A stretch of DNA of 52,363 nucleotides from contig DAINQB010000010.1 in the NCBI GenBank assembly GCA_036743175.1, positions 1 through 52,363 on the forward strand. Direction: 5' to 3'. The notes under the pieces were generated by a model. That model was not told the origin of the DNA. It was given only the letters and a program-made list of their open reading frames with translations, and did no database searches. The stretch is from Bacillota bacterium (GTDB lineage Bacteria; Bacillota; Clostridia; DUPQ01). The position numbers and the translations under genes are program-made. Below, piece by piece: positions 1-8,728 of this stretch; position 1 is the first letter of the stretch; each line of letters opens with the position of its first letter.

Positions 1-70
1 GGGCAAACCCTCCGTAAGGCGGGGACGCAAAGCCAGGAGTCCCAAGTCGGATCGTTCGGTTGCATAATTT
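1..70 (+). promoter_or_regulatory. c-di-GMP-I (GEMM-I) riboswitch aptamer, 5' end cut by window edge, upstream of the adhesin gene
   Basis: GGGCAAACCC-TCC-GTAA-GGC-GGGGACGCAAAGCC...GGTTGC: P2 with GNRA loop, conserved GGACGCAAAGCC junction, P3 closing GGTTGC. Equivalents of Vc2 G20/A47/C92 are present. P3 is somewhat degenerate. Confidence 0.85.
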
Positions 71-110
71 AGGGATGTTAGAATGTTACACAAGTATTAG
101 GAGGGTAAAC

Positions 111-2762
111 ATGAGAAAGAGAAGGAAAGGAATACTGGGATTGGCTATTGCTTTAGTCTTTATTATATCCCAGTTGACAGGAGTGGTCAGTGTATATGCT
201 GATCCCCCTGAAGAAAAGGTGACAGGTACTATAAGATATACATCAGGTACAAGCAGTTATCTTACAGCTACCTACAGTGGACTCAGTCCGCTTCCAAATG
301 AATTCGGTATTGGAAACAGTGCGTATAATGCCTGGTGTGTGGATAATACCAGAACAATCAGTACCGGAACGAACTATGCAGTAACTGTTTACAGCCCATA
401 TGATGGTACATGGGTAGATGATGCATCCATAGATGCTCACAGCAATTGGGTAGATATTCCCTGGGATGATATCACATGGATTGTAAACAACAGAAGCGGA
501 TATACAAAGGACGAGGTACAGAATGCCATATGGCATCTGACAGATGGAATCAGTGTTTCAGGTAATGCGCTTGCACTGATAAACAGCATACCATCAACAG
601 TTGCACCTGGTGAAACATATCCAAAACAGATTCTTGTAAACTGGATGGGCAACGACAGGCAGCTTTTGGTAACCGAATATACACCCCCAAGTTTCACAGT
701 AACCTACAACTCAAATGGAGGCAGCACCCCGGCTCCTGTTGACAGTGCAAGTCCATACTACCCGGGTGAAGAAGTAACAGTCCTTGGTCAGGGTGAAATA
801 TCATGGGCACATCATACTTTTGAAGGCTGGAACACAACATCCGGAGGATCAGGAACGGATTATGATCCGGCAGATACTTTTGATATGGGTTATGCAAATG
901 TGGAACTGTTTGCACAGTGGGAACCCATAGACTATACAGTAACCTATGATCCAGGTGATCATGGTACCTTTGATGCAGATGTTACTGAAGGACTCCACTT
1001 CGGAGATGATACTCCTGTCGCACCGGAAACCCCCGGAGAAACCGGATGGGAATTTAACGGATGGAGCCCCAAACCAACTGAAACAGTGGAAGGAAATGCT
1101 ACATATACAGCACAATGGATACAGGTATTCACCGTAACCTACGACCCCGGAGATCATGGTGATTTCACTGCAGTAGTACACGAAAACCTGCATAATGGTG
1201 ACGATACACCTGCCGCACCCTCAACCCCGGGACAGCCCGGATGGTCATTCAGCAGCTGGAGCCCCACACCAACCACTTTGGTGTCAGGTAGTGCGGTTTA
1301 TGTTGCCCAATGGACGCAGGATGAATATACAGTAACCTTCGAACCCGGCAGCCAGGGAACCTTTGAAACCCAGACTACTACGGGACTTCATTATGGCGAT
1401 GACACGCCAACTGCACCTGAGACTACAGGCAATGCAGGATTTACATTTACAGGATGGAATCCTTTGGTGAACCTTGTTGTTACAGGAAGTGCAATTTATG
1501 TTGCACAGTGGGATCAGGACATTTACACAGTAACATATGATCCGGGTCTTTACGGTACTTTTGATGCTCAGGTAACCGGTGAATTGCTTTATGGCGATGA
1601 TACGCCGGCACCACCGGAAGAAACTCCTTCAGAACCCGGATGGTTATTTGACGGATGGAGTCCGGTACCTTCTGAAATTGTTACCGGGAACGCCACATAC
1701 ATTGCCCAGTGGGTACAGATTGAGTATACTGTGACCTATGAACCAGGCGACCATGGTACTTTTGAAACTCAGATTACAGAAGGACTCCACTATAATGATG
1801 ATACGCCTGATGCTCCGATTACGACCGGAGATGAAGGTTGGGCATTCAATGGATGGACACCTTCAGTTGAGTCACTTGTCACAGGAAATGCTACTTATAC
1901 TGCTCTTTGGACATTGATACCGGTTGATGGACTGGATATTACCAAATCCGTCAATTTTGATGATGTTTTTGTAGGTACAGAAATTCAGTTTACAATAACA
2001 GTTACTAACACTGGCAATACAGTACTTTATTCGGTAAATGTTGTTGATGAGATGCTCGGTGTTTCACAGTCATTTGAACTCCTGGATCCCCAGCAAAGCG
2101 AGGAAATAATTGTTTCCTATACAACTACTTCGGAAGATGTTCCCGGATTCACAAATACAGCTGTAAGCACAGCCTTAGGCCAGACGCAGGAAGTACTCAG
2201 GGATGAAGCAAGCGTTAGTGTAACAGTAAGTCTGTTGCCTCCTCCGCCTCCGCCACCGGTTCTGGTACCCGGAATATCAGTTAGCATAACTCCGGATGCT
2301 GCCTTGGTTGAGTCAGGGACACCTGTAACTTTCACAATGAATGTGACCAATACAGGACTGCTTGTTCTCTACAATGTAGAAGTGGTCAATACTGACCTTG
2401 ATTTCAGTACAACCATACCAATACTTTATGTTCTGGAAACGCAAACCTTTACTGTAACCAAGACTCTGACAGAAGCAGGTGATTTCAGTTACACTGTAAC
2501 TGCTACAGGAACAGCACCTAGTGTTTCCGCGGTAAGCGATACAGATGTAACAACTGTTGGGGTATTCACTACAGAGATACCAGAGAATCCACCGGAAGAA
2601 CCGGTTATACCTCCGGATGAACCGGTACCCGGTGACACTGTGGAAAATCCACAGACCGGTGTTCTTCCGGCATCTGCTCTTGCCTTCTCAGGAATATTCA
2701 CTTTGGGAGCAGGAATCATAGCACTCATCAAGAGAAAAAAAGAAGATGATGGGGAAGAATGA
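111..2762 (+). CDS. Sortase-anchored surface adhesin (~883 aa): signal peptide, putative thioester (TED/TQXA-like) domain, InlB-B/Listeria-Bacteroides-type repeats, two DUF11/DUF7507-like Ig domains, Pro-rich linker, NPQTG sorting signal
   Basis: AGGAGG at 99-104 before ATG 111 (the ORF-track TTG at 60 lies inside the riboswitch). N-terminus MRKRRKGILGLAIALVFII..VYA; AWCVD...VQNAIW...RQLLV motifs; repeated YTVTYDPG..GW....A.Y.AQW; ITKSV..GTEIQFTITVTNTGN; C-terminal NPQTG + hydrophobic helix + KRKK. Confidence 0.85.
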   Translation: MRKRRKGILGLAIALVFIISQLTGVVSVYADPPEEKVTGTIRYTSGTSSYLTATYSGLSPLPNEFGIGNSAYNAWCVDNTRTISTGTNYAVTVYSPYDGTWVDDASIDAHSNWVDIPWDDITWIVNNRSGYTKDEVQNAIWHLTDGISVSGNALALINSIPSTVAPGETYPKQILVNWMGNDRQLLVTEYTPPSFTVTYNSNGGSTPAPVDSASPYYPGEEVTVLGQGEISWAHHTFEGWNTTSGGSGTDYDPADTFDMGYANVELFAQWEPIDYTVTYDPGDHGTFDADVTEGLHFGDDTPVAPETPGETGWEFNGWSPKPTETVEGNATYTAQWIQVFTVTYDPGDHGDFTAVVHENLHNGDDTPAAPSTPGQPGWSFSSWSPTPTTLVSGSAVYVAQWTQDEYTVTFEPGSQGTFETQTTTGLHYGDDTPTAPETTGNAGFTFTGWNPLVNLVVTGSAIYVAQWDQDIYTVTYDPGLYGTFDAQVTGELLYGDDTPAPPEETPSEPGWLFDGWSPVPSEIVTGNATYIAQWVQIEYTVTYEPGDHGTFETQITEGLHYNDDTPDAPITTGDEGWAFNGWTPSVESLVTGNATYTALWTLIPVDGLDITKSVNFDDVFVGTEIQFTITVTNTGNTVLYSVNVVDEMLGVSQSFELLDPQQSEEIIVSYTTTSEDVPGFTNTAVSTALGQTQEVLRDEASVSVTVSLLPPPPPPPVLVPGISVSITPDAALVESGTPVTFTMNVTNTGLLVLYNVEVVNTDLDFSTTIPILYVLETQTFTVTKTLTEAGDFSYTVTATGTAPSVSAVSDTDVTTVGVFTTEIPENPPEEPVIPPDEPVPGDTVENPQTGVLPASALAFSGIFTLGAGIIALIKRKKEDDGEE
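930..1915 (+). repeat. Five tandem ~65-aa (~195-201 bp) intragenic repeats in the adhesin, preceded by one longer InlB-B-like unit (~691-925)
   Basis: Units start near 933, 1128, 1326, 1524 and 1725 with (Y/F)TVT(Y/F)(D/E)PG and end in A(Q/L)W. The DNA copies are diverged at synonymous sites. Confidence 0.85.
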
Positions 2763-2793
2763 ATTTAGTCAGCTTTAGATCCACGAATTGATA

Positions 2794-2823
2794 GCAGGGA
2801 GCTCATATGAGCTCCCTGTTTTA
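2794..2823 (+). terminator. Intrinsic terminator between adhesin and sortase
   Basis: Perfect 24-bp palindrome CAGGGAGCTCATATGAGCTCCCTG (2795-2818) followed by TTTT. Confidence 0.75.
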
Positions 2824-2876
2824 CAGTTGTTTTTTGAAGGCAAGACAGGGTAAAATAGACATAATGGAGAAATGAC

Positions 2877-3839
2877 ATGAATGAGCAAAGCAGGAAAAAG
2901 GGAAAAATCAAACGTCGGTTGCTTAATATATTTATTTTAATATGTTTCATTGCTTCAGGATTGTTGCTGTATCAGGCAATCATTACTAAGATTGATGAGA
3001 ATAACAGCATTGAAACTTACTCGGAAATTGAAGCGATTTACGAAAATAGCATAAGGGAAAATCCACCCGAAGTCGTATCACAGGAACCTGTCCCTACTGA
3101 CGATCCAACTGCTTCTGAAAATCCTTCTGAGACATCATCTCCTGAACCAACGATTATACCAACCCCTTCGCCTCGACCCACTCCGTCACCGGAGATTACT
3201 CCAGCACCATCATTAAGTCCCGAGGATAAGGGTATACCTCAGCTTGATTTAATAGACAGAAATGAAATCGTACCGTATTTCAATGATTTACTGGACGTGA
3301 ATGAAGATATACGGGGATATATCAAGATTCCGGGCACAAACATAAGCTATCCCGTTGTACAGGGGCTTGACAATGAATTTTATCTTGAAAGAAACATCTA
3401 TGGGGAAAAAACCATTTCAGCATCAATATTCATGGATTACAGAAACAATCCAAGGGATCTTGATGACAATACAATTATTTATGGACATAATCTAAATACT
3501 ACAATGTTCAATGACCTTGACTATTTCGTGGATGAAAAAACACGGGATGAATATCTTGCTATAGGCGGAACCTTCAGGATGGATACTGCCTTCAGGGTAA
3601 TGGAGTGGGAGATTTTTGCTGCTTATGTAATAGACAAGGATGATTTCAATTATCTTGTAACCAATTTCTATACGGAACAAAGCCACCAGGATTTCATAGA
3701 TAAAATTTACGAACTGTCATGGATAGATACAGGAGTTTTGATTGCTACAGATGATAAAATACTTACTCTTTCCACATGCAACCATTGGTTCAATGATTCA
3801 AGGACAGTTATCCATGCAAGGTTGATTACAAATAACTGA
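2877..3839 (+). CDS. srtB: Class B sortase with long Pro/Ser/Thr-rich linker
   Basis: N-terminal basic patch and TM helix; IKIPGTNISYPVVQGLDNEFYL, SIFMDYRN, IIYGHN, ILTLSTC and downstream R (SRTVIHA) give the His-Cys-Arg triad of SrtB-type enzymes. Confidence 0.9.
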   Translation: MNEQSRKKGKIKRRLLNIFILICFIASGLLLYQAIITKIDENNSIETYSEIEAIYENSIRENPPEVVSQEPVPTDDPTASENPSETSSPEPTIIPTPSPRPTPSPEITPAPSLSPEDKGIPQLDLIDRNEIVPYFNDLLDVNEDIRGYIKIPGTNISYPVVQGLDNEFYLERNIYGEKTISASIFMDYRNNPRDLDDNTIIYGHNLNTTMFNDLDYFVDEKTRDEYLAIGGTFRMDTAFRVMEWEIFAAYVIDKDDFNYLVTNFYTEQSHQDFIDKIYELSWIDTGVLIATDDKILTLSTCNHWFNDSRTVIHARLITNN

Positions 3840-3873
3840 AAACCTATGATTATTACAGTTTTGTAACAAACAC

Positions 3874-3902
3874 TTGCAAAAGAATTAAGTGTGGTGTATA
3901 CT
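3874..3902 (+). promoter_or_regulatory. Sigma-A-type promoter for the tandem-riboswitch RNA
   Basis: TTGCAA (3874-3879), 17-nt spacer, TATACT (3897-3902). Confidence 0.75.
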
Positions 3903-3913
3903 TCTTTTACAGA

Positions 3914-4010
3914 ATCTATATACGAAAAGGCAAACCTGTCGAAAGGCAGCGACGCAAAACTATAGGGCCTGAACCGAAAGGGATGGCAGCCAGGATACCG
4001 AAATTTAGAT
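3914..4010 (+). promoter_or_regulatory. c-di-GMP-I riboswitch aptamer (tandem copy 1)
   Basis: GAAAAGGCAAACCTGTC-GAAA-GGCAGCGACGCAAAACTATAGGGCCT...GGCAGCCAGGATACCGAA. G20/A47/C92 equivalents intact; ATCTA (3914-3918) can pair with TAGAT (4006-4010) to extend P1. Confidence 0.92.
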
Positions 4011-4035
4011 TTTTTATTTGGACTTTGAAACATGA

Positions 4036-4135
4036 ATAACAATGACGAAAAGGCAAATCCACCGAAAGGTGGGGACGCAAAGCCAAAGGGCATAAACAAT
4101 TTTGTACGGCAGCCGGTTACCGAATTTTATGTTAT
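4036..4135 (+). promoter_or_regulatory. c-di-GMP-I riboswitch aptamer (tandem copy 2)
   Basis: GAAAAGGCAAATCCACC-GAAA-GGTGGGGACGCAAAGCC...GGCAGCCGGTTACCGAA, near-consensus. ATAACA (4036-4041) can pair with TGTTAT (4130-4135). Confidence 0.95.
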
Positions 4136-4325
4136 CATCAGCAGTCTTATCATCCAGCCGGATGAGTACAGGATTACAAGTTAACTGAATACCTTTGACA
4201 AAGCGTCTGATTATGGTTTTGGAGCCAGGATGTAAATTTTTTCATGCATCCAACGGCTTTGAAATAGTTGACTAACATTCCCTTAACACATGATGAAAAT
4301 CACGTGGATCTGATTTAATCTTGAT

Positions 4326-4361
4326 ACCGGCCGGCTTTTGAAGTTGACCGGTTATTTTCTT
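4326..4361 (+). terminator. Probable intrinsic terminator ending the tandem-aptamer transcript
   Basis: ACCGGCCGGCTT-TTG-AAGTTGACCGGT stem (one mismatch, two GU pairs) followed by TATTTTCTT. Confidence 0.6.
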
Positions 4362-4414
4362 GTATAGGGGGATTTACATCACGAAAAGCCTTATTTACAT
4401 TGATAATTTTTTGT

Positions 4415-4443
4415 TTGACAGTAAAATACTAATCTGTTAATAT
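4415..4443 (+). promoter_or_regulatory. Sigma-A promoter of tRNA-Gln
   Basis: TTGACA (4415-4420), 17-nt spacer, TGn-TAATAT (4438-4443). Confidence 0.75.
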
Positions 4444-4454
4444 TCTTAATGCAG

Positions 4455-4528
4455 TGCCGAATTGTGTAATGGTAGCACAACTGACTCTGGATCAGTCTGT
4501 GAGGGTTCAAATCCTTCTTCGGCAGCCA
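4455..4528 (+). tRNA. tRNA-Gln (anticodon CTG)
   Basis: Acceptor TGCCGAA/TTCGGCA, anticodon arm ACTGA-CTCTGGA-TCAGT, T-loop TTCAAAT, encoded CCA. Confidence 0.97.
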
Positions 4529-4557
4529 GGCCCTCCCTTTACGGAGGGTCTTTTTTT
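4529..4557 (+). terminator. Intrinsic terminator after tRNA-Gln
   Basis: GGCCCTCC-CTTTAC-GGAGGGTC followed by T7. Confidence 0.85.
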
Positions 4558-4594
4558 ATGTATTATTTGTGTAAATTGACTGATAGGAAGTATT

Positions 4595-5284
4595 ATGAAA
4601 AAGCATTTGAAAACCCTGCTGTTTACAATCCTGGCACTGTCCGTGACAGTTGTTTTGATGATAGTTGCAATTAACATCCATATTGTTTCATATTCAGGCA
4701 AATATATTGTTGATTCTGTCGAAGAGATAGCTGAAATAGTACCTGTTCCTGTACAGGCGGTGGTTGTACTTGGTGCCAGGGTTTATCCGGACGGCAGACC
4801 CTGTGCGATGCTCCAGGACAGGCTGGATGCCGGGATATCCGTCTATGAAAATGATTTGTCGCTGAAATTGCTGCTGACCGGTGACCATGGTACCATTGGA
4901 TATGATGAAGTCAATTCAATGAAGGAATATACATTGGGACAAGGTATTCCAAAGGAGGATGTTTTCCTTGATCATGCCGGCTTTTCAACCTATGACAGCA
5001 TGGTCAGGGCTGCCAGGATTTTCAAAGTCGAAAGTGCAGTTGTTTCAACACAGGAATTTCATTTGTACCGGGCCATATACATCGCACGAAGGAATGGAAT
5101 TGAGGCATGGGGTATAAAAGCCGACCTCAGGAAATATCCACAAAGCGAAATCTTACGCTATACAGTCAGGGAGTGGCTTGCAAGGACCAAGGATTTCTTC
5201 TATGTGAACATTCTAAGGAAGGACCCGGTATACCTTGGCCAAGCAATTCCAATAACAGGTGACAGTTCACCTTCATATGATTGA
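4595..5284 (+). CDS. SanA/YdcF/ElyC (DUF218) family membrane-anchored protein
   Basis: N-terminal TM helix; VVLGARVYPDG, LQDRLDAG, LLLTGD, YDEVNSMK, LDHAGFSTYDS, QEFHLYRAIYIA motifs typical of SanA-like proteins. Confidence 0.85.
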   Translation: MKKHLKTLLFTILALSVTVVLMIVAINIHIVSYSGKYIVDSVEEIAEIVPVPVQAVVVLGARVYPDGRPCAMLQDRLDAGISVYENDLSLKLLLTGDHGTIGYDEVNSMKEYTLGQGIPKEDVFLDHAGFSTYDSMVRAARIFKVESAVVSTQEFHLYRAIYIARRNGIEAWGIKADLRKYPQSEILRYTVREWLARTKDFFYVNILRKDPVYLGQAIPITGDSSPSYD

Positions 5285-5294
5285 CCATGCATGC

Positions 5295-5323
5295 TTGACA
5301 CTAATATTTGGCATATATATAAT
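5295..5323 (+). promoter_or_regulatory. Consensus sigma-A promoter of the ileS T-box leader
   Basis: TTGACA (5295-5300), 17-nt spacer, TATAAT (5318-5323). Confidence 0.9.
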
Positions 5324-5334
5324 ATCAATAATCA

Positions 5335-5590
5335 GTTAAAAGCTGTGAACGGAACAAGTAAGTATCCTGAGGTAGCTAAGAGAACAGCCGGTTGGTGGAA
5401 GGCTGTGTACCGGGATTTCTGAATATCATCCGTGAGCTTTTCCCCGGAATCGAGTATGGGGAAACGGGGGCAACCGTTATCAATGCAGGATATAGAATGT
5501 ATCCGATGAGTGGCTTGCAAAAGCAAACAGGGTGGTACCGCGTGAGAAAATGCTCTTTCGTCCCAGTGTGGATGAGAGGGCTTTATTTAT
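5335..5590 (+). promoter_or_regulatory. T-box riboswitch, Ile specifier
   Basis: Stem I with AGAGA and GGTGGAA elements, specifier ATC at 5425-5427, T-box AACAGGGTGGTACCGCG at 5526-5542, terminator hairpin 5552-5581 + TTTATTT, directly upstream of ileS. Confidence 0.93.
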
Positions 5591-5608
5591 ATACAATTGG
5601 AGGAAGAA

Positions 5609-8600
5609 ATGTACAAAAAAGTTTCAACCAAGCTGGATTTCGCCGAAAGGGAAAAGGAAATCAGGAAATTCTGGAAAGATAATGATATCTTTCGGAAAAG
5701 CATTGAAAACAGGGAGTGTGCTCCGGTATTCACATTTTATGACGGACCCCCGACTGCCAACGGAATGCCTCACATAGGCCATATTCTTACAAGGGTCATC
5801 AAGGACCTTATCCCAAGATACAGGACCATGAAAGGCTACAAGGTGCTCAGAAAGGCCGGTTGGGATACACATGGACTGCCCGTTGAGCTTGAAGTCGAGA
5901 AACTCCTGGGCATAGACGGCAAACCGGAAATCGAAAAGTACGGTGTTGAGCCATTCATCAAGAAGTGCAAGGAAAGTGTTTGGAAGTATAAAGGCAACTG
6001 GGAGATAATGAGTGAAAAAGTAGGTTTCTGGGCGGATATGGACAATCCGTATATAACCTATGACAATAATTACATTGAGTCTGTCTGGTGGGCATTGAAG
6101 ACCATCTGGGACAAGGGCCTTCTTTATAAAGGCCATAAGATTATACCTTATTGTCCAAGATGCGGAACAAGCCTCTCAAGCCATGAGGTTGCACAGGGGT
6201 ACAAGGATGTCCATGATGAATCAATTTATGTAAAGTTCAAGGTCAGGGGTGAAGAGAATACATTCTTCATGGCATGGACGACGACACCTTGGACACTGCC
6301 ATCAAACCTGGCACTTACCGTGGGCCCCGGCATCGAATATGTCAAGGCTTTGCATAATGGAGAAAATATTATAATTGCCAAGGCGCGTATGTCCGAGGTG
6401 CTTGGTGACGGGTCTGAAATAATTGAAGAATACAAGGGAACACAGCTTGAGGGAATGGAATATGAACCTCTGTTTGACTTTGTTTCACCTGATAAAAAGG
6501 CATTCTATGTTTGTCTTGGAGACTTTGTAACCCTGACCGAAGGTACAGGTATAGTTCATACAGCCCCCGCATTCGGTGAAGATGATGCAGTGATAGGAAG
6601 AAAATACGGACTTCCCTTCGTACAGCTGGTGGATGAGCAGGGACACATGACAGAGGAGACGGATTTCGTAGCCGGTATGTTCGTAAAGGATGCTGATCCG
6701 GTTATAATAGAGCATCTCAGGGAGAAGGGACTGCTTCACAGAATAGATGAATATGAGCATTCCTATCCTTTCTGCTGGCGCTGCGACACCCATTTGATTT
6801 ATTATGCCAGGAACACATGGTTCATAGAGATGACTAAACTGAAGGATAATCTCCTTGCAAACAACGATAAAATCAACTGGTATCCGCCTTCAATAGGAGA
6901 AGCCAGGTTCGGTAACTTCTTGAGGAACGTGGTTGACTGGGGTATATCAAGGGAAAGGTACTGGGGAACTCCTCTGCCTATCTGGGAATGCTCATGCGGT
7001 CACAGGGATGCCATAGGAAGTATTGCTGAACTGAAGGATAAGGGAATTAATGTGCCTAAAGACATAGAACTTCATAAACCATATATAGATGAGGTTCATT
7101 TGAGATGTCCTGAATGCCAGGGGGAAATGACAAGGGTCAGTGAAGTCATTGACTGTTGGTTTGACTCAGGGGCTATGCCGTTTGCACAGTGGCACTATCC
7201 CTTTGAGAACAAGGAACTGTTCGAAGAGAATTTCCCGGCGGATTTCATAAGCGAGGCACTTGACCAGACAAGAGGATGGTTCTATACTCTGCTTGCAATT
7301 TCAACCCTGCTCTTCGATGAGCCTGCTTACAAGAACTGTGTGGTCCTTGGACTTGTTCAGAACAAGGACGGACAGAAAATGAGCAAAAGCAAAGGGGATT
7401 ATGTTGATCCGGATGTTGTCCTTGACAACCAGGGAGCAGATGCAGTCAGATGGTATTTCTATACAGCAAGTGCGCCATGGCTTCCAAGCAAATTCTATGA
7501 AGAGGCTGTCAGCGAGGGACAGAGAAAATTCATGGGTACATTCTGGAATACTTATGCATTCTATGTACTGTATGCTGAGATAGACAAGTTCAATCCACTG
7601 CAATACAGCCTTGAATATGACAAGCTTGGTCTGATGGACAGATGGATTCTCTCAAAGCTGAATTCACTTGTTAAATATACCGATGAAAGCCTGGATTCCT
7701 ACAGGATAACCGAACCGGCAAGAGCCATGCAGAAATTCGTTGATGAACTCAGCAACTGGTATGTAAGAAGGGGCAGGGAAAGGTTCTGGCAGAAGGAAAA
7801 CAATCAGGACAAGATAAATGCCTATATGACTTTGTATACGGTCCTTGTTACACTGGCCAAGATATCAGCGCCCTTTGTACCTTTCATGACAGATGAGATA
7901 TACAGGAATCTGGTAGCCGGAATAGATGCAGATGCACCTGAAAGTATCCATCTTTGTGATTTTCCGTCATATGATGAGTCGGTAATCGACGAAGACCTGG
8001 AGAAATACATGGATGAAGTACTTTCAGTTGTAGTCCTTGGAAGAAGCCTCAGGAATACAGCGAACATCAAGAACAGACAGCCTGTTTCCGAACTGCTTCT
8101 GAACAGTGAAACAAGGCTGCCTTCCGATTACCTTGATCTGATACGGGATGAACTTAATGTCAAGAAAGTCAGCTATACGGAAGATGCCACGGCATTCATT
8201 GACTATAATCTCAAACCTCAGCTGAAGACCCTTGGCCCGAAGTACGGAAAGCTTGTTCCAATGATTTACAAGGCACTGGCTGAAGCTGACGGAGCTTATG
8301 TTATGTCGGAATTTGAAAAGGGGAATTCAGTAACATTCAGAATAGAGGATACAGACGTAGTACTCGAAAAAGATGATGTTCTTTCGGAAACAACGCAAAA
8401 AAGCGGATATGTATCCGAAGGCAACGGAAGTCTGACAGCTGTACTTGATACAAATATGACAGAGGAGTTGATCGAGGAAGGTTATGTCAGGGAGATTGTT
8501 AGTAAGATCCAGACCATGCGAAAAGAGGCAGGATACGAAGTACAGGACCACATCCTGCTCAATGTCAGTGGAAGTGACATAATAATGAAGGTTGTTGAAA

Positions 8601-8728
8601 AAAACAGTGATACAATATGCAGTGAAATACTTGCAGACTCATTGTTTGACGGCGAGGGAACCGATGTCTATAAAAAGGATTGGAACATAAACGGGGAAGA
8701 CGCGGTATTCAGCATAGTCAGGAGCTGA
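5609..8728 (+). CDS. ileS: Isoleucine--tRNA ligase, type 2 (eukaryote/archaea-like)
   Basis: FYDGPPTANGMPHIGH, GWDTHGLPVE, WGISRERYWGTPLPIW, KMSKS. ~1040 aa with the type-2 C-terminus. ATG 5609 follows GGAGG. Confidence 0.97.
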   Translation: MYKKVSTKLDFAEREKEIRKFWKDNDIFRKSIENRECAPVFTFYDGPPTANGMPHIGHILTRVIKDLIPRYRTMKGYKVLRKAGWDTHGLPVELEVEKLLGIDGKPEIEKYGVEPFIKKCKESVWKYKGNWEIMSEKVGFWADMDNPYITYDNNYIESVWWALKTIWDKGLLYKGHKIIPYCPRCGTSLSSHEVAQGYKDVHDESIYVKFKVRGEENTFFMAWTTTPWTLPSNLALTVGPGIEYVKALHNGENIIIAKARMSEVLGDGSEIIEEYKGTQLEGMEYEPLFDFVSPDKKAFYVCLGDFVTLTEGTGIVHTAPAFGEDDAVIGRKYGLPFVQLVDEQGHMTEETDFVAGMFVKDADPVIIEHLREKGLLHRIDEYEHSYPFCWRCDTHLIYYARNTWFIEMTKLKDNLLANNDKINWYPPSIGEARFGNFLRNVVDWGISRERYWGTPLPIWECSCGHRDAIGSIAELKDKGINVPKDIELHKPYIDEVHLRCPECQGEMTRVSEVIDCWFDSGAMPFAQWHYPFENKELFEENFPADFISEALDQTRGWFYTLLAISTLLFDEPAYKNCVVLGLVQNKDGQKMSKSKGDYVDPDVVLDNQGADAVRWYFYTASAPWLPSKFYEEAVSEGQRKFMGTFWNTYAFYVLYAEIDKFNPLQYSLEYDKLGLMDRWILSKLNSLVKYTDESLDSYRITEPARAMQKFVDELSNWYVRRGRERFWQKENNQDKINAYMTLYTVLVTLAKISAPFVPFMTDEIYRNLVAGIDADAPESIHLCDFPSYDESVIDEDLEKYMDEVLSVVVLGRSLRNTANIKNRQPVSELLLNSETRLPSDYLDLIRDELNVKKVSYTEDATAFIDYNLKPQLKTLGPKYGKLVPMIYKALAEADGAYVMSEFEKGNSVTFRIEDTDVVLEKDDVLSETTQKSGYVSEGNGSLTAVLDTNMTEELIEEGYVREIVSKIQTMRKEAGYEVQDHILLNVSGSDIIMKVVEKNSDTICSEILADSLFDGEGTDVYKKDWNINGEDAVFSIVRS

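Follow-up and report, generated by a model that had tools for sequence, protein, structure and literature searches.

The window analyzed here, the whole 52,363-nt stretch of clostridial DNA, begins within the 5′ leader of a sortase-anchored adhesin gene (start ATG at 111, stop codon at 2760 to 2762). Downstream of it lie the adhesin terminator, a sortase gene (stop at 3839) preceded by a conserved −10-like element of its own (GGGUAAAAU), a putative RNA unit (3874 to 4361) and a tRNA-Gln gene. The visible part of the adhesin leader starts with a c-di-GMP-I aptamer cut by the window's 5′ end. The complete adhesin leader of locus L002 contains three aptamers (5275 to 5636), and the adhesin leaders in these loci generally carry three to four tandem c-di-GMP aptamers, each with its own terminator. 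The presence of a c-di-GMP-I aptamer in this leader would place the adhesin mRNA under cis control by c-di-GMP. The features of the locus are:

1 to 67, + strand: third leader aptamer, a 5′-truncated c-di-GMP-I element (RF01051, 46.1 bits), cut by the window's 5′ end
68 to 81, + strand: predicted target site 1, UUUAGGGAUGUUAG, located after the last aptamer (1 to 67) and before the SD (99 to 105) of the adhesin 5′ leader
2765 to 2785, + strand: predicted target site 2, the 'box' UUAGUCAGCUUUAGAUCCACG, 3 nt past the adhesin stop codon and before the adhesin terminator
3874 to 3902, + strand: predicted RNA promoter (−35 TTGCAA, 17-nt spacer, −10 TATACT; 9/12 in a consensus scan)
3911 to 4013, + strand: aptamer 1 with extended P1 helix (RF01051 match at 3919 to 4002, 63.6 bits, E 3e-10, Rfam cmscan)
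3911 to 3918 and 4006 to 4013, + strand: P1 extension of aptamer 1, AGAAUCUA pairing with UAGAUUUU
4010 to 4020, + strand: U-run UUUUUUAUUUG, contiguous with the P1 extension of aptamer 1
4032 to 4138, + strand: aptamer 2 with outer helix (RF01051 match at 4042 to 4124, 69.3 bits, E 1e-11, Rfam cmscan)
4032 to 4041 and 4130 to 4138, + strand: outer helix of aptamer 2, AUGAAUAACA with UGUUAUCAU
4139 to 4214, + strand: variable linker, poorly aligned between the two clades
4151 to 4164 (4150 to 4165), + strand: linker hairpin CAUCC/GGAUG, only in the window's own clade
4170 to 4186, + strand: weak candidate internal anti-seed, within the linker
4215 to 4265, + strand: conserved long hairpin, outer stem GGUUUUGGAGCC/GGCUUUGAAAU, inner stem GGAUGU/AUGCAUCC
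4269 to 4284, + strand: seed 1, UGACUAACAUUCCCUU, predicted single-stranded, invariant in 10/10 sequences
4287 to 4306, + strand: small hairpin CACAUGAUG-AAAA-UCACGUG, its 3′ arm overlapping seed 2
4301 to 4325, + strand: seed 2, CACGUGGAUCUGAUUUAAUCUUGAU, whose core (4303 to 4312) is predicted to pair with the box in the adhesin 3′ UTR
4326 to 4361, + strand: intrinsic terminator hairpin ACCGG-C-CGGCUU/AAGUUG-A-CCGGU followed by UAUUUUCUU (predicted fold)
4455 to 4528: tRNA-Gln(CUG), with its own TTGACA-17-TAATAT promoter and a strong terminator

Architecture and conservation of the unit

The sequence evidence supports the reading of positions 3874 to 4361 as a stand-alone, gene-less RNA of ∼450 nt with its own promoter and terminator, whose transcription is predicted to start at ∼3909. 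The first-pass annotation had proposed such an RNA beside a c-di-GMP-controlled adhesin locus, with a sigma-A promoter, two near-consensus c-di-GMP-I aptamers with intact pockets, an extra P1 helix on each, a terminator-like hairpin, an independently transcribed tRNA-Gln and no convincing ORF, and all of these points stand. The comparison with related genomes that it had suggested also bears out the gene-less layout. The whole unit (promoter, both aptamers, 3′ domain and terminator) is kept in 10 distinct sequences from related uncultured Clostridia, all of them represented by metagenome contigs and MAGs, and the sortases of these loci share only 55 to 79% identity with that of the window. In every homologue the gene immediately 5′ of the RNA encodes a class B sortase, and no ORF occupies the position of the RNA in any relative. 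A metagenome scan with the pattern ACATTCCCTT...TAATCTTGAT returned 74 loci, among which only L091, L094 and L138 are true homologues; the rest are chance matches. The alignments hold indels of non-multiples of three, and no conserved ORF is present in the unit. A 50-aa ORF at 4032 to 4184, annotated as a gene in public pipelines, has no ATG in the second clade, and a small-ORF reading was rejected.

The 5′ half is strongly conserved. The TTG of the −35 element and the T.T..A.T of the −10 element are invariant in the 10 aligned homologues, with the spacing kept. Both window aptamers span model positions 1 to 87 of 87 and exceed the RF01051 gathering score of 35, and the strongly conserved c-di-GMP-I blocks (GGCAAA, GACGCAAA, CAGCC and CCGAA) are all present in both. 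The ligand-pocket blocks, equivalents of G20, A47 and C92 (GGCAAA, GACGCAAA and (A/G)CCGAA), are invariant in the 10 homologues, where every aptamer scores 50 to 78 bits in an Rfam scan. For aptamer 2 of some homologues the sister model RF03167 slightly outscores RF01051, indicating that the two models separate these sequences poorly. Both window elements are confirmed as Rfam members and correspond to full-length c-di-GMP-I aptamers, with c-di-GMP as the predicted ligand. The extra helices are present on both; GGCAGCCGGUUACCGAA, the 3′ strand of the aptamer 2 outer helix, is invariant across all homologues in the alignment.

Aptamer 2 is followed by ∼230 nt of structured RNA and the terminator hairpin. 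Comparing 4100 to 4460 with Rfam under permissive settings assigned no family to this 3′ domain and returned only chance snoRNA-like matches (E at least 2.5). The two mid-unit hairpins of the first-pass annotation fared unequally: that at 4215 to 4265 is conserved with covariation, whereas that at 4150 to 4165 is confined to the window's clade. In the long hairpin (RNAalifold pairs 392 to 443), one pair is changed on both sides (GC:4, AU:4, GU:2) and several further pairs show one-sided G-U changes; the small hairpin (RNAalifold pairs 468 to 490) shows CG/UG and UA/UG/CG variation. The end of seed 2, UAAUCUUGAU (4316 to 4325), is invariant. The terminator hairpin and its T-rich tail are conserved, with a variable upper stem and runs of T7-8 in the second clade; because of its bulges, a simple terminator scanner missed it.

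Three further structural candidates were discarded. The two clades fail to align in the linker that separates aptamer 2 from the long hairpin, and no consensus structure was obtained for it. Pairing of seed 1 with GGAAUGGCAG of aptamer 1, predicted by RNAalifold, shows no covariation and is broken in L158 and L165. An alternative pairing of CCGGUU in aptamer 2 with a downstream AGCCGG is possible in most sequences, but is short and palindromic.

Complementarity between the 3′ domain and the adhesin mRNA

The first-pass annotation named no target for the RNA; the present analysis points to the adhesin 5′ leader and 3′ UTR. In both clades the leader offers seed 1 two complementary sites at matching positions, one immediately upstream of the first riboswitch and the other in the stretch that separates the last riboswitch from the ribosome-binding site. 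The best duplexes between seed 1 and the leader reach −21.4 (L002), −20.3 (L091), −21.8 (L164) and −24.2 kcal/mol (L167). The homologous site of L167 is the best seed 1 match of its 21-kb locus, and those of L164 and L091 are also strong. Unrelated loci yield duplexes of −20 kcal/mol or better at a rate of 0.011 per kb, and 370 kb of such sequence contained none at −20.9 kcal/mol or better. A control with 300 shuffled seeds gave a summed energy of −53.5 ± 5.5 against −87.7 for the observed seed, and none of the 300 was as good. Next to the seed, the flank CCCUUAACA stands opposite UGUUAAGGG in L091, of the window's clade, and CCCUUGACA opposite GUUCAAGGG in L167, of the other clade. The window's organism has a first adhesin gene whose leader (L002, 1556 to 1670) yielded no seed 1 site. 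A 9-nt seed 1 match at L002 1487 lies inside a coding gene and was taken as chance.

The box follows an adhesin stop codon in every RNA-bearing lineage and is degenerate in L161, the one relative without the RNA. Seed 2 and the box form 9 to 11 uninterrupted pairs in 12/12 instances (109 Watson-Crick, 18 G-U). Their 8-bp core is paired in 87 of 88 cells, and one of its pairs is A-U in 6 lineages and G-C in 5, a compensatory change between clades; the other changes are mostly G-U. Slid registers retain 17 to 46% pairing, compared with 87% in the proposed register. Ranked among sense-strand matches for seed 2, the box comes first or second in 9 of the 11 loci, but in the 52-kb window it falls outside the top five. 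Energies for seed 2 range from −18 to −23 kcal/mol, which is within the background of long loci. The target search covered 12 to 52 kb per genome, so better targets could lie elsewhere. Seed 2 is partly held in the 3′ arm of the small hairpin.

Where the scored helices depart from Watson-Crick pairing, they almost always do so by a G-U on the + strand, which argues for RNA pairing rather than a DNA inverted repeat. Since the lineages are related, the conserved complementarity is partly inherited, and the trans covariation amounts to essentially one compensatory event per seed together with wobble-compatible single changes. Taken in silico and at the level of the local sequence, sequence hallmarks of trans base-pairing are found: a conserved seed predicted to be accessible, conserved complementarity and a compensatory change.

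Proposed mechanism and competing readings

We estimate a probability of roughly 60% that 3874 to 4361 encodes a c-di-GMP-gated, trans-acting base-pairing sRNA with the neighbouring adhesin mRNA as its target. The 5′ half, with its two c-di-GMP-I aptamers, would be the sensor, and the 3′ half the effector, laid out like that of a trans-encoded sRNA: a single-stranded seed is followed by a small hairpin, then an A/U-rich stretch, and finally an intrinsic terminator. Once made, the RNA would bind c-di-GMP and pair in vivo with the adhesin mRNA, seed 1 at two places in the 5′ leader and seed 2 (CACGUGGAUCUG...UAAUC) at the box right after the stop codon, ahead of the terminator; the effect on the mRNA could be on translation, decay or termination. 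The adhesin mRNA would itself carry three to four c-di-GMP riboswitches of the ON type in cis. With cis riboswitches and a trans RNA responding to the same messenger, c-di-GMP would act twice on adhesin expression, in a feed-forward arrangement. A bolder version, in which one RNA with two aptamers serves as a ligand-dependent clamp that holds the adhesin mRNA at its two ends (the leader through seed 1, the region after the stop codon through seed 2) and creates an all-RNA feed-forward circuit, an ultrasensitive switch for surface adhesion, is tentative, and we would sooner bet against it than for it.

Ligand transduction is the weakest step of this explanation. The P1 extension of aptamer 1 closes the MFE fold in 10/10 homologues and covaries (AAUCUA/UAGAUU versus AAAUCUUUU/GGGGAGAUUU, an A-U to U-A or U-G change). 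Directly after aptamer 1, GAUUUUUUA(U/A)UUG is invariant in 10/10, with variable flanks. The earlier claim that no terminator follows either aptamer is therefore unsafe, the P1 extension of aptamer 1 meeting this invariant U-run. Neither the scan nor the alignment revealed aptamer-overlapping terminator hairpins after either aptamer. The U-run is a candidate ligand-dependent intrinsic terminator, or a candidate protein or RNase site, and together with the P1 extension it is the only candidate coupling feature common to all homologues. Because the stem before it is A/U- and G-U-rich, it would be a poor terminator unless stabilized by the bound aptamer. As the extension runs into the invariant U6, bound ligand could terminate transcription there, leaving the effector unmade and less sRNA at high c-di-GMP (an OFF switch). 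Alternatively, with the P1 helix 2 to 3 nt from the predicted 5′ end, bound ligand could stabilize the RNA. We lean slightly toward termination before the effector. With one or both aptamers masked in folding, the computed accessibility of the seeds shifted one way in some homologues and the other way in others. A convincing internal anti-seed is confined to the other clade, where CAAGGGACAGUCA directly follows aptamer 2; as a general target mimic it was set aside, being weak or absent in 3 of 5 sequences of the window's clade, and it is retained as a clade-specific lead.

Among the competing readings, a sponge or buffer that mainly binds two c-di-GMP per molecule, and so lowers or stores the free messenger, is unlikely. 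The RNA does have two intact aptamers of the high-affinity type and no gene to regulate, any expressed copy would bind some ligand, and this role has been proposed for merRNA, a 445-nt gene-less c-di-GMP riboswitch RNA (PMC3627812). However, aptamers alone would suffice for a sponge, yet conservation is highest in the 3′ domain, where an invariant segment of 16 nt and another co-varying with the adhesin 3′ UTR would be left unexplained. A sponge would also have to be very abundant relative to the ligand pool. Some buffering may nevertheless arise as a side effect. The first-pass annotation had offered the sponge and a ligand-gated sRNA side by side, and the complementarity to the adhesin mRNA favours the latter.

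A cis element is about as improbable as the sponge. On this view, the mRNA of the sortase gene, or of adhesin and sortase together, would have the unit as its 3′ UTR, and the contacts of the complementary segments would be intramolecular and long-range. A scan found no terminator between the sortase stop codon and the aptamers, so read-through from the sortase gene could also make the RNA; the leader, the box and the RNA share one strand within ∼4.3 kb in the window's clade, and the box overlaps the sortase start codon in L159. This reading must nevertheless contend with the unit's own conserved promoter, with the terminator after the adhesin gene and with the sortase's −10-like element. In L167, moreover, the box-bearing adhesin gene is ∼5.4 kb from the RNA, with another riboswitch-controlled operon between them.

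Slightly less probable still is sequestration of a protein in the manner of EutX and Rli55, with the 3′ segments binding an RNA-binding regulator and c-di-GMP deciding whether they are transcribed. The strict invariance of the 16-mer is typical of protein sites, and the order riboswitch, effector domain, terminator, with no ORF, is shared with those RNAs (PMC13501541). Yet the segments have specific partners in the adhesin mRNA that change compensatorily, no candidate RNA-binding protein is encoded among the neighbours adjoining the unit, and no known protein-binding RNA family matched 4100 to 4460 at E up to 10.

An ordinary cis riboswitch with a long platform, reading through into tRNA-Gln(CUG) or into DUF218 and IleRS, is very unlikely and largely refuted by the comparison of loci. 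A tRNA-Gln gene does lie 60 to 250 nt beyond the RNA in most lineages, and the window's clade has a weak terminator (UAUUUUCUU), but the second clade has a T7-8 terminator, the tRNA has a strong conserved promoter and a terminator of its own, and the spacer between RNA and tRNA is unconserved and variable in length. The RNA is present without a tRNA gene in the downstream 480 nt of L138 and ∼200 nt of L091, and L161 has a tRNA 97 nt after the sortase gene and no RNA; the RNA thus does not depend on tRNA-Gln. A downstream gene in the same unit, the defining feature of a cis riboswitch, is not found: no ORF is conserved, the terminator is, and the tRNA is independent.

Equally remote is the view that the box and seed 2 are recombination sites around an invertible sortase segment. 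They are indeed DNA inverted repeats flanking the sortase gene in the window's clade, but the 18 G-U positions on the + strand would be mismatches in DNA, the repeat is only ∼10 bp with a spacing of 1.5 to 5.4 kb, no contig among the homologues has the inverted orientation, and no recombinase gene adjoins the unit. Least credible, and refuted by the conservation of the unit, is a decaying leader left from a deleted gene, the main alternative of the first-pass annotation: it would explain why no ORF follows the aptamers, but the whole unit, including its non-aptamer parts, is conserved with covariation in 10 lineages, none of which has an ORF there.

Relation to known RNA regulators

Proteins and cis riboswitches are the known outputs of c-di-GMP. 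Our literature search turned up no dedicated trans-acting sRNA with direct c-di-GMP sensing, and a 2026 review of signal-responsive sRNAs describes SAM- and B12-linked cases only, leaving c-di-GMP unmentioned (PMC13501541). If the reading as a c-di-GMP-gated sRNA is true, the unit would represent a new output layer for c-di-GMP signalling and a natural modular device of aptamer plus seed, and a purely RNA feed-forward loop, with cis riboswitches and a trans sRNA acting on one mRNA, would govern a sortase-anchored adhesin. Were the clamp to hold as well, the RNA would be the first base-pairing sRNA gated by a second messenger, and no sRNA before it would have been shown to link a target's 5′ UTR to its 3′ UTR. 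For the idea of orphan riboswitches as regulators in their own right, the locus offers a concrete test case with targets already defined.

Serial c-di-GMP-I aptamers at the locus of a cell-wall-anchored adhesin are described for Bc3-5 and Bc2 before cap in Bacillus thuringiensis (PMC4933901; PMC4759541 via PMC12452182). The adhesin leader of the window's locus is of the Bc3-5 type, with three to four aptamers and a terminator for each. Unlike Bc3-5, the orphan pair has no aptamer-overlapping terminators and no downstream ORF. In lacking a gene it resembles merRNA of Bdellovibrio bacteriovorus, an RNA of ∼445 nt with a c-di-GMP-I riboswitch and no conserved downstream ORF, proposed to be a store (PMC3627812). 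However, merRNA has one aptamer, was defined by its massive expression and has no reported target complementarity.

Base-pairing of a riboswitch RNA with the 5′ UTR of an mRNA from a distant locus has precedents in SreA/SreB of Listeria (PMC13501541) and in a SAM-I riboswitch/sRNA of Desulfovibrio vulgaris (bioRxiv 10.1101/803072). These are ordinary cis riboswitches before genes, whose prematurely terminated leaders moonlight in trans, whereas the window RNA has no cis gene. It would instead possess a separate, dedicated pairing domain, with two seeds for the two ends of one mRNA.

Trans-encoded sRNAs of Firmicutes with C-rich seeds, such as RsaE/RoxS, combine a seed, a hairpin, an A/U-rich stretch and a terminator, and have targets in UTRs. 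The predicted effector of the window RNA shares all four elements; its seed is C-rich (UUCCCUU) and single-stranded, and its terminator is of the intrinsic type. To our knowledge, no sRNA of the RsaE/RoxS type carries ligand-binding aptamers.

The nearest counterparts in layout are the riboswitch-containing sRNAs EutX of Enterococcus faecalis and Rli55 of Listeria monocytogenes (PMC13501541). Like them, the window RNA would be stand-alone, with its own promoter and terminator, aptamers at the 5′ end, an effector domain at the 3′ end and no ORF. In EutX and Rli55 the ligand reportedly decides whether the effector is made (the 2014 work of DebRoy and of Mellin). The gap between sensor and effector differs, since the window RNA has no dedicated terminator hairpin there, only the P1 extension and the U-run. 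Furthermore, EutX and Rli55 rely on one aptamer for adenosylcobalamin and an effector that sequesters the ANTAR regulator EutV, whereas the window RNA combines two c-di-GMP aptamers with an effector complementary to an mRNA.

Organization of the tandem-aptamer locus

The tandem-aptamer unit (3874-4361) extends from a promoter to a terminator hairpin (4326-4361) and lies among the following features of the window, which was scanned in full with Rfam cmscan (c-di-GMP-I gathering score, 35); promoters and the tRNA terminator come from a consensus scan.

1-67: third c-di-GMP-I aptamer, cut by the window start, which falls 9 nt inside it (Rfam cmscan)
111-2762: adhesin with Flg_new/CLIPPER repeats and an NPQTG sorting signal
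2877-3839: class B sortase
3874-3902: promoter of the unit, TTGCAA-17-TATACT
3919-4002, + strand: c-di-GMP-I aptamer 1, complete, 63.6 bits (Rfam cmscan)
4042-4124, + strand: c-di-GMP-I aptamer 2, complete, 69.3 bits (Rfam cmscan)
4415-4443: separate, strong tRNA promoter, TTGACA-17-TAATAT
4455-4525: tRNA (Rfam cmscan); tRNA-Gln(CUG) at 4455-4528 by ARAGORN
4528-4551: strong tRNA terminator
4595-5284: DUF218 protein
5336-5568: T-box leader, 123 bits (Rfam cmscan), preceding IleRS (5597-8728)

The ORF list and Pfam tags of public contigs bearing the same sortase give the gene order adhesin, class B sortase, tandem-aptamer unit, tRNA-Gln, DUF218, T-box and IleRS. The first-pass description of a gene-less unit is borne out: two full aptamers follow the promoter, the ORF list holds no credible ORF of any length within the unit, and the tRNA-Gln has its own promoter. 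Both aptamers belong to RF01051 by score and by their conserved blocks, and the unit lacks what defines a cis riboswitch, a downstream gene under its control. Its region is modestly more stably folded than shuffled sequences (z about -2.2). The T-box upstream of IleRS, kept in relatives, is an ordinary arrangement. In all lineages, a conserved GGGUAAAAU(A/U) motif lies past the adhesin terminator and 25-35 nt 5' of the sortase start (window 2830-2876 and homologues); it probably serves the sortase as a -10 region of its own.

Relatives and conservation of the unit

The analysis was conducted entirely in silico on uncultured organisms, and the compared lineages are related to one another. Genomes scanned with the DUF218 protein yielded two close loci, L005, with the complete layout (sortase, two aptamers, 3' domain, tRNA-Gln, DUF218, T-box-IleRS), and L004, whose sequence begins within the 3' domain. 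A metagenome pattern scan with the most conserved 3' segments added L091, L094 and L138 among 74 loci, mostly chance matches. Sortase homologues with 55-93% identity form a distinct group (the next are at ≤44%), whose contigs carry the unit in L158, L159, L160, L164 and L165 and lack it in L161 and the outgroup L166. Ten distinct full-length copies could be aligned from promoter to terminator (alignment A3), five in clade A (window, L158, L159, L160, L091) and five in clade B (L165, L164, L094, L005, L138). The sole sizeable ORF in the unit (4032-4184, 50 aa), which public gene callers annotate on three contigs of the window organism (L001-L003), is a false call: it lies across part of aptamer 2, matches no Pfam family and is not conserved in the other clade.

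Across the ten copies, the promoter hexamers, both aptamers, a hairpin at 4215-4265, a 16-nt invariant segment, a second near-invariant segment and the terminator are all conserved. One pair of the hairpin is G-C in four sequences, A-U in four and G-U in two; the upper stem of the terminator varies in sequence while keeping its pairing, and clade B terminators end in runs of T7-8. Such promoter-to-terminator conservation with pair-preserving changes rules out the relic leader of a deleted gene, which the first-pass annotation had offered as its main alternative. A leader of tRNA-Gln is largely ruled out as well: the spacer between unit and tRNA promoter varies in length and shows no conservation, the L138 unit has no tRNA within 480 nt downstream, L091 has a different gene ~190 nt downstream, and L161 (sortase 63% identical; 2060-2185 and 3155-3252) places tRNA-Gln 97 nt past the sortase gene with no tandem-aptamer RNA. 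Because the unit is conserved, lies directly 3' of the sortase gene in every copy and varies separately from the tRNA, its sequence record is that of an independent gene under purifying selection.

Two conserved segments facing the adhesin mRNA

The adhesin is itself preceded by tandem c-di-GMP-I-type aptamers, three in the window organism and four in L091 and L167, the latter an extension of the L005 locus; four in series exceed the described triple-tandem Bc3-5. On L002, a contig of the window organism (window coordinate = L002 - 5569), leader aptamers 1 and 2 each carry a terminator whose 5' arm overlaps the aptamer 3' end, an arrangement of predicted ON-type logic. Within window 1-113, the first hairpin of the last leader aptamer includes CCCUCC, a complement of the adhesin SD GGAGGG (99-105), and the aptamer looks like a translational ON switch. 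The adhesin start codon is ATG 111; the mechanical ORF list instead gives TTG at 60. Adhesin leaders have in common a 5' hairpin (UUCC...GGAA) and, following it, AGUUUUGCG, both placed 5' of the first aptamer; the one leader without a seed-1 site (L005/L094 second operon) has them too.

Aptamer arrays of adhesin leaders: L002 5275-5636; L091 4494-4993 (- strand); L167 2056-2602
UUCC...GGAA leader hairpins: L002 5215-5275; L091 1500-1560 (- strand, reverse-complement coordinates); L164 70-125; L167 1995-2050; L005 340-400

Several aptamers were assigned by Rfam to the sister model c-di-GMP-I-GGC (RF03167) at 59-65 bits (threshold 59): L094 2510-2590, L163 3169-3249, L160 2487-2567, L164 5226-5307, L165 1448-1528 and most adhesin-leader aptamers. 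Aptamer 2 copies so assigned are nearly identical to the window copy placed in RF01051. The 3' strand reads GUUCGGUUGCUAC in leader aptamers versus GGCAGCCGGUUACCGAA in the orphan pair, and their ligand specificities may differ.

Seed 1 is the invariant UGACUAACAUUCCCUU (4269-4284). When every locus was scanned for duplexes with it, targets being sought in the sequence around the unit, the best sense-strand sites in L002, L091 and L164 fell within the adhesin leader, at two positions: UUUUGCGGAAUGUUAGUAC, just 5' of the first leader aptamer, and a site lying 3' of the last aptamer and 5' of the SD (window copy UUUAGGGAUGUUAG, 68-81). Leader sites were not evident at first in L005 and L094; extension of L005 into L167 revealed the relevant adhesin farther upstream, with both sites, the downstream one (GUUCAAGGGAAUUGUUAGUUAG, -24.2 kcal/mol) being the top match in the 21-kb locus. 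Unrelated loci totalling 370 kb give 0.011 duplexes per kb per strand at or below -20 and none at -20.9 or below. The summed best energy over four leaders was -87.7, against -53.5 ± 5.5 for shuffled seeds (0/300 as good). The 3' flank of seed 1 differs by clade (CCCUUAACA versus CCCUUGACA), and the leader site changes to match (UGUUAAGGG in L091, clade A, versus GUUCAAGGG in L167, clade B).

Seed 2 (4301-4325), the second conserved segment, contains CACGUGG(A/G)UCU, complementary to a box located directly after the adhesin stop codon and 5' of the adhesin terminator. The box reads UUAGUCA(A/G)CUUUAGAUCCACG(U) in clade A (window copy 2765-2785), where it follows both adhesin paralogues on L002, and UUAUUAGCUUGACC(U/C)(A/G)CGUGA in clade B. 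Nine to 11 uninterrupted pairs form in all 12 instances (109 Watson-Crick and 18 G-U in total), and a nested second short helix, UUAG with CUAA, lengthens the duplex. Of the 88 cells that the 8-bp core spans in a concatenated alignment, 87 are paired; at one position six lineages have A-U where five have G-C, and three pairs vary via G-U alone. Pairing, 87% in register, falls to 17-46% when the partner is slid by 1-3 columns. Among sense-strand matches to seed 2, the box ranks first or second in 9 of 11 loci and lies outside the top five in L002 and the 52-kb window. For each seed, about one compensatory event accounts for the trans covariation. Since departures from Watson-Crick pairing in the scored helices are nearly all G-U on the + strand, the pattern argues for RNA-RNA pairing over a DNA inverted repeat. 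L161, the sole relative without the RNA, has a degenerate box of which only half is kept (UUGACCCAUCAG), a single case consistent with co-loss. The box-bearing adhesin of L167 is split between two gene calls (2658-5072 and 5458-6114); the intervening stretch (5072-5458) resembles adhesin repeats, and a frameshift, misassembly or pseudogenization may explain the split.

Proposed mechanism and comparison with known systems

We favor, at a probability of roughly 60%, a base-pairing sRNA that is gated by c-di-GMP and targets the adhesin mRNA; we infer its transcription, ligand binding, in vivo pairing and regulatory outcome from these patterns. Its effector half (4266-4361) is predicted to be built like a trans-encoded sRNA, with an open seed followed by a small hairpin, an A/U-rich stretch and the terminator. 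The two seeds would aim at the 5' leader and 3' end of a single mRNA, one that is already controlled by c-di-GMP riboswitches. The conserved aptamers imply control of the sRNA by c-di-GMP. The sole universal feature for ligand coupling is the P1 of aptamer 1, lengthened by 6-10 covarying pairs and abutting the invariant GAUUUUUUA(U/A)UUG. Stabilized by ligand, this P1 could act as a terminator stem, such that high c-di-GMP would yield a ~105-nt RNA with no effector; alternatively, the extension, 2-3 nt from the predicted 5' end, could shield the RNA once ligand is bound. In clade B, CAAGGGACAGUCA, which comes straight after aptamer 2, is a target mimic that could mask seed 1 once that aptamer has folded; in most of clade A this mimic is weak or missing. 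Ensemble calculations on ligand gating were inconsistent in direction, and we lean slightly toward an sRNA less active at high c-di-GMP, which would silence leaky adhesin transcripts at low levels of the messenger.

Among c-di-GMP riboswitch RNAs, the one gene-less example described is merRNA of Bdellovibrio, a proposed sponge (PMC3627812). Work in Clostridioides difficile found that c-di-GMP riboswitch RNAs ending prematurely co-purify with Hfq, and trans roles were put forward there as a possibility (PMC8583004). The literature searched yielded no report of a c-di-GMP-sensing base-pairing sRNA. The unit resembles the trans-acting riboswitches SreA/B, yet no cis gene accompanies it and its seeds form a domain of their own (PMC13501541; 10.1101/803072). 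In its proposed mode of working, it is most like the riboswitch-containing sRNAs EutX and Rli55, but differs from them in its ligand, in having two aptamers and in addressing a partner RNA where theirs is a protein.
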